Translations under genes and position numbers: made by a program | In this document: positions 20,940 to 22,357 of the stretch, one piece after another | Layout: each line of letters opens with the position of its first letter | How positions within the stretch are numbered: the first letter of the stretch is position 1 | NCBI GenBank assembly: GCA_002869265.1 | Contig: PKTH01000019.1 | Coordinates: 1-22,941 of the forward strand | DNA: 22,941 nucleotides | Reading direction: 5' to 3' | Source of the DNA: Candidatus Parcubacteria bacterium | GTDB lineage: Bacteria; Patescibacteriota; Patescibacteriia; Patescibacteriales; BM507 | The notes under the pieces: generated by a model | What the model saw: the letters and a program-made list of their open reading frames with translations, nothing else | Told to the model about the DNA's origin: nothing | Database searches by the model: none

Positions 20940-21027
20940 GGTAAGAGGGTGACGAAGGGAATTCTCTTACCTCTCTTATAAAGATTATTTATATTAAATA
21001 GTTTTTTAGGGGAAGAGTTCTTTAAAT
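20940..21027 (+). promoter_or_regulatory. Conserved intergenic module, copy 2
   Basis: GGTAAGAG-(16-nt loop GGTGACGAAGGGAATT)-CTCTTACC hairpin, then TCTCTTATAAAGATTATTT, then AGTTTTTTAGGGGAAGAGTTCTTTAAA. Confidence 0.55.
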
Positions 21028-21229
21028 GTTTTTTGTCTTCTGTTTATAGTTCATACGGTGAATTATAAACAGGGGGAAAGGGTTATGTCCTCTATATGGC
21101 TGTCGATCACTATGATAGTGAGTGAGAAATTAAAGAACTGACAGCAAACACTGTGCCACAACATAGTGTAACCATGGGAGTTAACAGACCCCAGTAAAAG
21201 TTAGGTTTGTGGCCTAACATCTGTTGTAA

Positions 21230-21315
21230 GGTAAGAGAGTGACATAAGGTACTCTCTTACCTCTCTTATAGAGAATACTAATAGTTAGTAGTTTCTTTGG
21301 AGAAGTTCTTTAAAA
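21230..21315 (+). promoter_or_regulatory. Conserved intergenic module, copy 3
   Basis: GGTAAGAGAG-(loop TGACATAAGGTA)-CTCTCTTACC hairpin, then TCTCTTATAGAGAATACT, then AGTTTCTTTGGAGAAGTTCTTTAAAA. It is preceded by another hairpin, GTTAGG-TTTGTGG-CCTAAC, at 21200-21218. Confidence 0.55.
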
Positions 21316-21329
21316 CTTATGGAGGGGTT

Positions 21330-21521
21330 ATGAATATAATTATTTCAACATCATCGCTTTCAATTCAAGAAGGTATTGATAATCTAGATTCATTTGTTGA
21401 GTCTGTGAAATTATCAAATCCTCAATCTGACTTTTCAGAAAAAATAGTTAGGGGATCATTTTTCTCCGATGCTGTTTTTAAGTCAGATAGAGGAACCTTT
21501 CTACTAATCAGAAGAATCTAA
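21330..21521 (+). CDS. Small hypothetical protein (63 aa)
   Basis: GGAGGGG ribosome-binding site 6 nt before the MNIIISTSS ATG, so the track's 21297 start is rejected. Confidence 0.4.
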   Translation: MNIIISTSSLSIQEGIDNLDSFVESVKLSNPQSDFSEKIVRGSFFSDAVFKSDRGTFLLIRRI

Positions 21522-21536
21522 CCCAATGGAGGTAAT

Positions 21537-21959
21537 ATGAAAAAAGTAATTTTGGTTGTAGAGGACAAGGAAGAAGAACAGATTTTGGCCAGGAAGGCAG
21601 TTGCAGATTCTGGCCATGGGATTATTCTTTGTGCAAATCTATTTGATGCAAAGAGTATGATTGGTTCATATTCAAGCAAGCTGTCAGGGATTGTAGCTGA
21701 TCTTCATTTTCCAGAAAGGAGTCAAGACACAAATCTTAATAAACCGGCTGGTCTTGCCATTCTAACTTTAGCCGTTAGTGAGAATATTCCTGTGGTAGTT
21801 TGTTCTGATATGGATAATCATCAATCTGATTATGTGAAAGATGTTATTCGGTATTTAGGAAAGCATACCAGCTATGGAGGTATTCCATTTAGCGTCGACA
21901 GAAAAGATTGGCTACAATCAGTAAAACAACTCAATGCCATAATGGCGAAAGGAGAATAA
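21537..21959 (+). CDS. Stand-alone CheY-like receiver (REC) domain protein, atypical
   Basis: KKVILVVEDKEEE (beta-1 acidic pocket as E/D), GIVADLHFPE (phospho-acceptor Asp position), VVVCSD (Thr/Ser position), YLGKHT (Lys position). GGAGG ribosome-binding site. Confidence 0.5.
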   Translation: MKKVILVVEDKEEEQILARKAVADSGHGIILCANLFDAKSMIGSYSSKLSGIVADLHFPERSQDTNLNKPAGLAILTLAVSENIPVVVCSDMDNHQSDYVKDVIRYLGKHTSYGGIPFSVDRKDWLQSVKQLNAIMAKGE

Positions 21960-21960
21960 A

Positions 21961-22272
21961 ATGCGAAAAATGTTGATAATTTCTGATAGTGTCTTTGGCA
22001 AGGTCTTGGCGGCGATTATTGAGAAGGATGGTTTTGATGTAATCTTATCTAGCCATGAAGACTCGGTATTCGCAGTCGCTTCAGAAAATCCCTCTCACAT
22101 TTTTATATGTGAATGTGGTAAATGTGAAGCTGGAGAAAAGACACCAATTAATATTGGCATGTCAGTTTCCGGTCAAACTATTTATCGTTGTGGATTTTCA
22201 GATGACAACGGAGGCGATTATCTTAAACTACCCCTTAATCTGGACAATCTTAAGTCCAAGATAAAAAAATAA
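21961..22272 (+). CDS. Degenerate receiver-like (pseudo-REC) domain protein
   Basis: MLIISDSVFGKVL ... HIFICECG has the REC beta-alpha pattern, but the phospho-acceptor Asp is replaced (ICE). AAGGAG ribosome-binding site. Translationally coupled to the preceding REC gene (1-nt gap). Confidence 0.4.
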   Translation: MRKMLIISDSVFGKVLAAIIEKDGFDVILSSHEDSVFAVASENPSHIFICECGKCEAGEKTPINIGMSVSGQTIYRCGFSDDNGGDYLKLPLNLDNLKSKIKK

Positions 22273-22357
22273 GGCAAGAGAGATGCAAAGTCATTTTTCT
22301 TGCCTCTCTTGTAAAGATTATTTTTTAAAATAGTTTTTTAGGAGAAGTTCTTTAAAT
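22273..22357 (+). promoter_or_regulatory. Conserved intergenic module, copy 4
   Basis: GGCAAGAGA-(loop GATGCAAAGTCATT)-TTTCTTGCC hairpin starting 1 nt after the stop codon, then TCTCTTGTAAAGATTATTTT, then AGTTTTTTAGGAGAAGTTCTTTAAAT. Confidence 0.55.

Follow-up and report, generated by a model that had tools for sequence, protein, structure and literature searches.

A conserved tandem-hairpin RNA element between the units of a Parcubacteria gene array, with a possible role in intercistronic processing

What do hairpins do between the genes of an operon, repeated from spacer to spacer, if they do not terminate transcription? The question is raised by a contig of a Candidatus Parcubacteria bacterium (PKTH01000019.1 of assembly GCA_002869265.1), which was analyzed over its whole length of 22,941 bp and is called the window here. 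Near one of its ends, an array of short genes is punctuated by four copies of a structured module, and an original prediction made from the sequence alone had pointed to one hairpin in each copy. All four hairpins proved real, and together with a second hairpin each makes up a conserved RNA element without an Rfam family. We establish below that the tandem-hairpin structure of this element is conserved, that it is biased to the sense strand, and that it is neither terminator-like nor promoter-like, while its function is answered more tentatively. To our knowledge, the post-transcriptional organization of gene expression is almost wholly unstudied in Parcubacteria and other bacteria of the candidate phyla radiation (CPR), which are uncultured.

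Structure, conservation, and strand of the module

Each module is ~85 nt long, lies on the plus strand (Table 1), and consists of a hairpin (H1), a longer hairpin (H2) abutting it, and a GTTCTTTAAA tail. The junction has zero nucleotides, as H2 begins at the nucleotide after the H1 end. This two-hairpin fold is the minimum free energy (MFE) structure as well as the centroid structure in all four copies, with energies of -29 to -32 kcal/mol and z scores of -4.2 to -5.4.

The H1 stems are GGTAAGAG/CTCTTACC in copy 2 (20940-20947/20964-20971), GGTAAGAGAG/CTCTCTTACC in copy 3 (21230-21239/21252-21261), and GGCAAGAGA/TTTCTTGCC in copy 4 (22273-22281/22296-22304, with G·U as the eighth pair). Sequence and folding both confirm that, as predicted, the hairpins stand at these places with stems that differ between copies yet remain paired. 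A hairpin exists in copy 1 too, but the 10-mers quoted for its stem were one base out of register, and the actual stem has 9 bp (GGGAAGAGG/CCTCTTCCC at 20645-20670). The interval that had been assigned to the modules, 20940-22304, omits copy 1 and cuts copy 4 after H1. At the third stem position, G-C, U-A, U-A, and C-G are found in copies 1-4, which makes three Watson-Crick pair types. The H1 base is conserved as GGNRAGA...UCUYNCC. The loops of copy 2 (TGACGAAGG) and copy 3 (TGACATAAGG) are indeed similar, but they differ by a 1-nt indel, and the pattern proposed for both fits copy 3 only.

Directly 3′ of the H1 stem, CTCTT(A/G) is repeated in 4/4 copies, as had been noticed. When each copy is folded, the repeated CTCTCTTATA turns out to be the 5′ arm of H2, which is made up of UCUCUUA-U-AAAGAUUAUUU, a 3-4-nt loop, and AAAUAGUUUUU-UAGGAGA. 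H2 has 17-20 bp (~19 bp in the window copies), and its base is CU-rich on the 5′ side and GA-rich on the 3′ side with a recurrent G·U wobble. The tail that follows is A/U-rich, and its GTTCTTTAAA is invariant in the window copies. The motif AAGTYC is enriched past H2, in 8 of 34 modules against a background of 6% (p ~0.001), but it is not a defining feature because it is confined to this subset. A small open reading frame (ORF) in the tail was considered and dropped because an in-register ATG is limited to copy 1.

As a repeat family, the modules amount to four plus-strand copies of at least ~76 nt that are 63-79% identical to the reference copy, and the window has no others. A 20-mer, CTCTCTTATAAAGATTATTT, occurs three times, compared with no occurrence in 100 shuffles.

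Relatives were taken from the contigs of the ~33 homologues of the 140-aa array protein (loci L025-L036), and three rounds of covariance models (R1-R3) were used. The models gave 22 sense-strand matches in nine Parcubacteria loci, and R3 gave zero matches in ~140 kb of unrelated control contigs and in positions 1-20600 of the window. The close relatives L025 (85% identity) and L026 (78%) have orthologous modules 3 and 4 with compensated changes. In the module-4 orthologues (L025 1198-1266 and L026 1012-1101), GGCAAGGG/CCCTTGCC replaces GGCAAGAG/TTTCTTGCC in H1, A-U becoming G-C for example, and UUAUUUA/UAAAUAG becomes UUAUUAA/UAAUAAU in H2. Changes in H2 are compensated also in the module-3 orthologue at L025 143-233.

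In distant relatives (~40-45% protein identity), the architecture is kept while the sequence is very different. The module of L032 reads ..CUCGCC followed by UCUCUCUUGCAG...UUGCAAGAGGGA, and that of L034 reads GCGAUUC..GAAUCGC followed by UCCCCAUCUUAG...CUAAGAUGGGGA. It is also present in L033, L035, L036, and L027, the last with one weak copy just 5′ of the receiver gene. H2 sequences are closer to one another within a genome than to their orthologues, whereas H1 sequences are position-specific. The module is absent from L028, L030, and L031, where ordinary promoters and terminators are found instead.

Covariation was measured in two alignments. When five close copies were aligned by MAFFT only, 96.6% of the cells were paired, compared with 50-62% when partners were slid by 1-3 columns, and six pairs change on both sides. 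With 22 copies from nine loci, 93.1% were paired (51-57% when slid), both members vary in 28 of the 30 pairs, and covariation scored 0.645 (0.12-0.18 when slid), figures that are strong support rather than formal probabilities because this alignment was fitted to a model and the copies are related. The structure-preserving covariation claimed from the four window copies thus held after orthologues were added and in the 22-copy alignment.

The strand on which the structure acts can be read from several asymmetries. In 13 of 14 modules, the plus strand gives a better fold than the minus strand, the margin usually being 4-18 kcal/mol. Non-Watson-Crick cells of the 22-copy alignment are 62 G·U and 12 A·C, and this G·U excess therefore argues for a sense-strand RNA; one H2 position is G·U in 13 of 21 copies. 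A strict scan for abutting hairpins found 22 in gene sense and 1 in antisense over 89 kb of array loci, compared with 1 and 1 over 179 kb of unrelated contigs. The module copies of the window and eight related loci are all inside arrays and all on the sense strand, with none in the flanks of those loci. The strand evidence points to a sense-strand single-stranded molecule, most simply mRNA.

Searches for known elements gave no counterpart of the module. No Rfam 15 family reached its gathering threshold anywhere in the window, and when 20000-22941 was searched at E up to 10, it gave only five chance-level matches, of 17-20 bits where the thresholds are 42-102. Nothing was found by a tRNA search, no match to the whole array was found by phage and plasmid BLAST, and nothing describing the tandem-hairpin element turned up in a literature search. 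A scan of viral contigs for the exact pattern CTCTCTTNTANAGA-N25-42-GTTCTTTAA gave 0 matches. The same pattern matched genome contigs (7) and metagenome contigs (15), where the matches are single chance occurrences unrelated to the module.

Some relatives differ in ways worth recording. In L035 and L036, a module subtype has a third small hairpin, GAGCGAA-loop-TTCGCTC, which shares 5-6 nt with the H2 base (L035 2519-2609, 4416-4470, 5467-5571, and 6258-6348; L036 784-868, 1361-1443, 1991-2064, and 2927-3007). Two of its copies contain a 38-40-nt insertion, and AAGTTC(T/C) follows as in the window tail; positions 6360-6372 of L035 are AAGTTCTTTAAAT, a sequence that window copy 4 has as well. 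At the module positions of L028, a more distant relative (686-766 and 1795-1875), an intrinsic terminator comes first and then a strong sigma-70 promoter that recurs at both sites, TTGACA-18-TATTTT/TATTCT with TG, which holds a 9-bp palindrome (AATAGCACA-N5-TGTGCTATT) as a likely operator. L027, a higher-GC relative, has few called genes across long stretches of 6211-9900, between the TrmB gene and the receiver pair, and repeated hairpin-forming segments there, such as TTTGTGCCCC(C/T)ATTCCAGCC at 7946 and 9339. L031, a relative without modules, encodes a large serine recombinase with Resolvase and Recombinase domains (1604-3082) ~760 nt downstream of its receiver pair.

Position in the transcript and possible functions

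Modules stand only between units and never 5′ of the first gene. The module is absent between the array promoter (Table 1) and the first array gene, and R1-R3 match nothing upstream of 20643. In 19 of 27 modules, the called start codon lies 16-67 nt past the H2 end, and in 14 of 24, H1 starts within 32 nt past the upstream stop codon. Because a promoter precedes the array, a terminator closes it, and in L026 a canonical terminator follows the last module (module 4) by ~40 nt, the modules are predicted to be internal to a transcript.

None of the modules carries a U-tract. H1 is followed by UCUCUUAU in the window, UCCCC in L034, and CUCCCG in L035, and H2 is followed by an A/U-mixed tail. A terminator scan lists no module hairpin, although it does list the array terminator and the ends of the housekeeping genes, which have canonical hairpin-plus-U terminators in this window. 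Because the organism's other genes use such terminators and the modules lack U-tracts, they are not simple terminators, as the original prediction had argued from the lack of a canonical U-run after any hairpin. They do not look like promoters either. A promoter scan found no consistent -35/-10 pair in the modules, its one 9/12 site being in the tail of copy 2 only (21021-21050), with none in copies 1, 3, and 4. The proposal of a regulatory RNA or a protein-binding structure fared well, as a cis-acting structure of this kind is the best reading.

More specifically, we read the module as an intercistronic processing or stability element rather than a switch, a preference that we hold at somewhat less than even confidence. 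The array would be one operon from promoter to terminator, with the modules as cis-acting RNA elements in its sense transcript. RNA polymerase would pass through each module, and an endonuclease would cut at or near it. The flanking hairpins could then shield the new ends, as H1 would close the upstream segment at its 3′ end and H2 would open the downstream segment at its 5′ end, so that unrelated cistrons and non-coding units would accumulate as separate RNAs of differing stability. In this the module would resemble the RNase III sites in the early region of T7, or the segments of other operons that are stabilized by hairpins.

Several points weigh against this reading. Read-through, cleavage, and end protection are steps that we infer, and the window points to no nuclease or binding protein that could be named. 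One hairpin suffices for end protection, and therefore stabilization alone leaves the invariant zero-nucleotide junction and the conserved CU/GA bases unexplained. The covariation alignments built with the models are fitted to them, and their copies are not independent; gene turnover at module boundaries also fits a role at the DNA level.

Much of the same evidence can be read as a regulatory target, in which an RNA-binding protein or another trans factor recognizes the H1-H2 dumbbell and co-regulates translation or elongation, perhaps with a contribution from re-pairing at the H2 base. Such recognition would suit the nearness of modules to start codons, the conserved CU/GA helix bases with their recurrent wobble, the within-genome likeness of H2, the small hairpin that overlaps the last 5-6 nt of H2 in L035 and L036, and the receiver-plus-partner pair that is always flanked by a module. 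However, the ribosome-binding sites are outside the module structure, the array-encoded receivers are stand-alone without an RNA-binding domain, and the terminal module of L026 keeps H1 and H2 though no gene follows. Pairing of the tail with the H2 3′ arm is weak. It is nominally significant in window copy 2 and two L036 copies only, and combining the copies, which are not independent, gives a p of 0.02. We regard a target of this kind as rather unlikely. As for the duplicated arm, the original prediction had taken it for a switch of the terminator/antiterminator or ribosome-binding-site-sequestering type, in which the H1 5′ arm toggles between its own 3′ arm and the adjacent duplicate. In copies 2-4, the H1 5′ arm can be drawn in a helix of 7-8 bp with CTCTTAT/CTCTTGT, and the tail of copy 2 can then pair with the H2 3′ arm. 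This helix forms only when the H1 3′ arm is barred from pairing, lies ~15-16 kcal/mol above the MFE, and is the best constrained fold in window copies 2-4 only, not in copy 1, L025 (L025a), L033, L032, L034, or L027. Because the alternative pairing is so much costlier and is not conserved, a two-state switch is not supported. The duplicate arm is stably engaged in H2, a helix supported by covariation, there is no terminator U-tract, and the true Shine-Dalgarno sequences lie 16-67 nt downstream of H2, where the module sequesters none of them. The switch is largely refuted and retains next to no probability.

A role in DNA would make the module either a folded single-strand recombination site that bounds mobile cassettes, as integron attC sites do, or a spreading structured repeat that promotes rearrangement. 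The array is cassette-like in its short co-oriented units, including two ORFans and non-coding units, and it adjoins a tRNA gene. The 113-aa gene between module 4 and the terminator is absent in L026 (compared at L026 1087-1146), a presence/absence difference of one unit at a module boundary. Between L035 (4423-5246) and L036 (2051-2865), the receiver pair has 79% nucleotide identity while the flanks are unrelated, with the homology breaking inside modules; L035 has one extra module and 130 nt of GC-rich structured hairpins (5264-5466). A cassette common to L032 and L034 is on opposite sides of the receiver pair. This turnover and the within-genome likeness of H2 fit recombination between repeated modules, which keeps a DNA-level role alive, and conservation of structure over sequence in a fixed orientation is also expected for attC-type sites. 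On the other hand, equal turnover would result from homologous recombination among repeats whatever their function, and the excess of G·U over A·C and the recurrent wobble favor RNA. The attC core sites are absent, and the module folds as a pair of hairpins where attC has a single one bearing R and L boxes. Neither the rest of the window nor the flanks of related loci hold a copy, and phages and plasmids gave no match. No integrase, transposase, HUH, or recombinase domain was found among the ORFs of at least 100 aa and the array genes of the 22.9-kb contig, which ends 220 nt past the array. We consider a DNA-level element improbable. A slim chance is left for a combined role, where the tandem hairpin would be the boundary signal of a new CPR gene-cassette system, both the junction of unit exchange and the punctuation of transcript cutting, acted on by a dedicated enzyme; functionally it would be like attC sites or CRISPR (clustered regularly interspaced short palindromic repeats) repeats, but with genes as 'spacers'. 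It is very unlikely that the module is a transcription-unit boundary, with H1 as a U-less terminator of the upstream unit and H2 plus tail as a promoter or operator of the downstream unit, perhaps bound by TrmB. What speaks for such a boundary is the terminator and palindromic promoter at the same positions in L028, and a weak TTATAA/TTGTAA ... TAGTTT/TAATTT pair that can be read by eye around H2 in some copies. Yet the promoter scan found no consistent pair, the putative -10 is broken in copy 1 with nothing similar in L032 and L034, H2 covaries within one genome unlike a sequence-specific operator, the G·U asymmetry is meaningless for duplex DNA, and the organism uses canonical U-tract terminators elsewhere.

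Units of the array and its surroundings

The units separated by modules are unrelated to one another, and this argues against the modules as debris of duplication. Among the units are two ORFans, a structured non-coding unit, and a conserved receiver/partner pair (Table 1). Because the 141-aa and 113-aa proteins match only themselves, they lead to no new module copies via homologues. No array protein has a match in Pfam or PADLOC.

Table 1 Features of the array and its borders in the window
Feature	Position	Strand	Description	Setting
TrmB-family regulator gene	19221-19994	-	PF01978, E 1.1e-09	Divergent from the array
Sigma-70-type promoter	20106-20134	+	TTGACA-17-TATAGT, TG extended; 11/12 consensus matches	Upstream of first array gene
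First array gene, 141 aa, ORFan	20199-20624	+	Self match only among 5.8 billion clustered proteins; no Pfam or PADLOC match
Module 1	20645-20726	+	H1 20645-20670; H2 20671-20711; tail AATGTTCTTTAAATA 20712-20726; fold -29.4 kcal/mol, z -4.16; R3 73.5 bits, E 1.7e-13	Between 141-aa ORFan gene and 60-aa gene
60-aa hydrophobic small protein gene	20753-20935	+	In ORF list and Joint Genome Institute (JGI) gene call; no Pfam match	Between modules 1 and 2
Module 2	20940-21028	+	H1 20940-20971; H2 20972-21013; tail AGAGTTCTTTAAATG 21014-21028; fold -29.5 kcal/mol, z -4.28; R3 81.1 bits	H1 begins 4 nt past stop codon of 60-aa gene; non-coding structured unit follows
Candidate non-coding unit	21029-21228	+	No ORF of at least 60 aa; fold -64.2 kcal/mol, z -4.26	Between modules 2 and 3
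Module 3	21230-21316	+	H1 21230-21261; H2 21262-21303; tail AGTTCTTTAAAAC 21304-21316; fold -31.7 kcal/mol, z -4.20; R3 75.5 bits	ATG of 63-aa gene 26 nt past H2 end
Conserved three-gene unit	21330-22272	+	63 aa (21330-21521), 140 aa (21537-21959), 103 aa (21961-22272)	Between modules 3 and 4
Module 4	22273-22358	+	H1 22273-22304; H2 22305-22345; tail AGTTCTTTAAATA 22346-22358; fold -30.4 kcal/mol, z -5.43; R3 77.5 bits	H1 directly past stop of 103-aa gene; ATG of 113-aa ORFan 33 nt past H2 end
113-aa ORFan gene	22379-22720	+	Self match only among 5.8 billion clustered proteins; absent from L026	After module 4
Canonical bidirectional intrinsic terminator	22891-22920	both	13-bp stem, then T-run	Closes the array

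The 200-nt unit between modules 2 and 3 has an 18-aa ORF as its sole ATG ORF, and it forms several hairpins. In the orthologous stretch, L025 1-140, two hairpins are kept via compensated changes around a conserved GGGAGUUARCAGACCCC core. The unit has no Rfam match, and it is a candidate structured non-coding RNA, which would be a new small RNA carried as an array unit.

The 140-aa protein of the three-gene unit is a stand-alone receiver domain, with an AlphaFold2 pLDDT (predicted local distance difference test) of 92.8 and a Foldseek probability of 1.0 to the Spo0F, MicA, and KdpE receivers. Its phospho-acceptor Asp is kept in a DLHFP motif that is invariant in L025-L036. Every related locus keeps both the receiver and its partner; the partner is always the next gene (103-116 aa), and a TrmB-family gene is usually nearby. 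No histidine kinase gene was seen in the receiver loci. The receiver family is small, having 37 clusters at E<=1e-30 among 1.84 billion representatives, and is apparently specific to this bacterial group. The association with TrmB recurs, since TrmB genes are near the receiver pair also in L027, L034, L035, and two further contigs.

The region between the divergent TrmB gene and the array (19995-20198) contains strong sigma-70 promoters in both directions, at 20026-19999 on the minus strand and 20106-20134 on the plus strand. Short tandem repeats also occur there, at 20028-20051 with a period of 10 and at 20062-20107 with a period of 14, and a regulator could bind at these repeats. Past the stop codon of the 141-aa gene, and ahead of module 1, positions 20627-20643 form a small hairpin, GGTGATAA-T-TTATCACC. 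At the other border, the terminator position homologous to that of the window is followed in L026 by a tRNA-His gene (L026 1147-1219). The contig end, 22925-22941, is the counterpart of the tRNA-His 3′ end on the minus strand, so the array adjoins a tRNA gene, and the assembly may have broken at it.

The window is a complete metagenome contig (JGI 3300007102), and a near-identical contig is present in ENA ERZ794998. Its bulk consists of housekeeping and copper-homeostasis genes, coding for SPFH, CNNM/CBS, RlmN, YchF, a methyltransferase, a P-type ATPase, a DsbD-like protein, and an amidotransferase. A perfect 12-nt tandem repeat, CCACCGCAAGAC x2.4, occurs at 11376-11404 and codes on the minus strand for the Cys/Gly-rich C-terminus SCGGSCGGSCGG of the DsbD-like/cupredoxin protein.

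Significance and comparison with known systems

With 28 of 30 pairs covarying over at least six lineages and no Rfam family, the module is a well-supported structured RNA candidate. It stands between every unit of a fast-evolving operon that mixes ORFans, structured non-coding units, and a stand-alone receiver pair beside a TrmB gene. If it is a processing signal, it offers a handle on operon punctuation in CPR bacteria, and if it marks cassette exchange, very small genomes would have a new route by which their genes turn over. In either case, the covariance model can be used at once for mapping such arrays in metagenomes.

Among known systems, the RNase III sites between the early genes of phages T7 and T3 are structures of about 50-90 nt, repeated in a polycistronic transcript and read through rather than terminating it, and once they are cut, the remaining hairpins protect the RNA ends. 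The modules are similar as structured non-terminators repeated between the cistrons of one predicted transcript. However, a T7 site is a single irregular hairpin with an internal loop, in contrast to the two abutting hairpins here. The nuclease of T7 is known, while cleavage of the module is a proposal, and the host is a CPR bacterium with no match to phage records.

Repetitive extragenic palindromic (REP) sequences and bacterial interspersed mosaic elements (BIMEs) of enterobacteria are imperfect palindromes in operon spacers near stop codons, which are transcribed, can stabilize upstream mRNA, and undergo concerted evolution. The modules share with them the palindromes in intergenic spacers near stop codons and the concerted evolution within a genome. 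REPs have hundreds of genome-wide copies, often in inverted pairs, with a conserved GTAG and a link to REP-associated tyrosine transposases (RAYT), whereas over the 23 kb of the window the modules are direct copies only, confined to one operon, and they are composed of two different hairpins.

Like the arrays of integron attC sites, the array here has a structured repeat after each short, co-oriented, and often ORFan unit, with none before the first unit, and as in integron cassette arrays, structure is conserved over sequence and the cassette content differs between relatives. Unlike attC, the modules have no RYYYAAC on either strand and no GTTRRRY core, the sole GTT being that of the tail, GTTCTTT, where the letters past GTT do not match RRRY. 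They form two separate hairpins, whereas attC forms a single bipartite one, the contig has no IntI gene, and the G·U bias favors RNA. A CRISPR array was also considered and ruled out, as its repeats are 23-50 nt with uniform spacers, compared with ~85-nt repeats that are 290-1043 nt apart with genes between them.

The targets of ANTAR proteins (EutV and AmiR) and the PyrR-type attenuators are adjacent stem-loops repeated in several intergenic regions of an operon. ANTAR hairpins have hexaloops with A at position 1 and G at position 4, and the second hairpin overlaps a U-tract terminator. Tandem stem-loops in several spacers of one operon and receiver-domain proteins in the locus are common to both systems. 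But the H2 loops are mostly 3-5 nt, the H1 loops of the window copies measure 8-12 nt, no terminator is present, and the receivers here are without an ANTAR domain.

A further parallel is the plastid intercistronic expression element (IEE), which works via a bound helical-repeat protein that blocks exonucleases, not via tandem hairpins. The IEE is a short sequence that mediates the processing of polycistronic transcripts into stable monocistronic mRNAs (PMC2230500). The module resembles it in its intercistronic placement and, if our preferred reading of a processing element holds, in its role; it differs in that the IEE belongs to plastids and has no similarity to the module in sequence or structure. 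The functional class proposed for the module is a known one, while its architecture of tandem hairpins and its setting in the fast-turning small-gene arrays of CPR bacteria are new.

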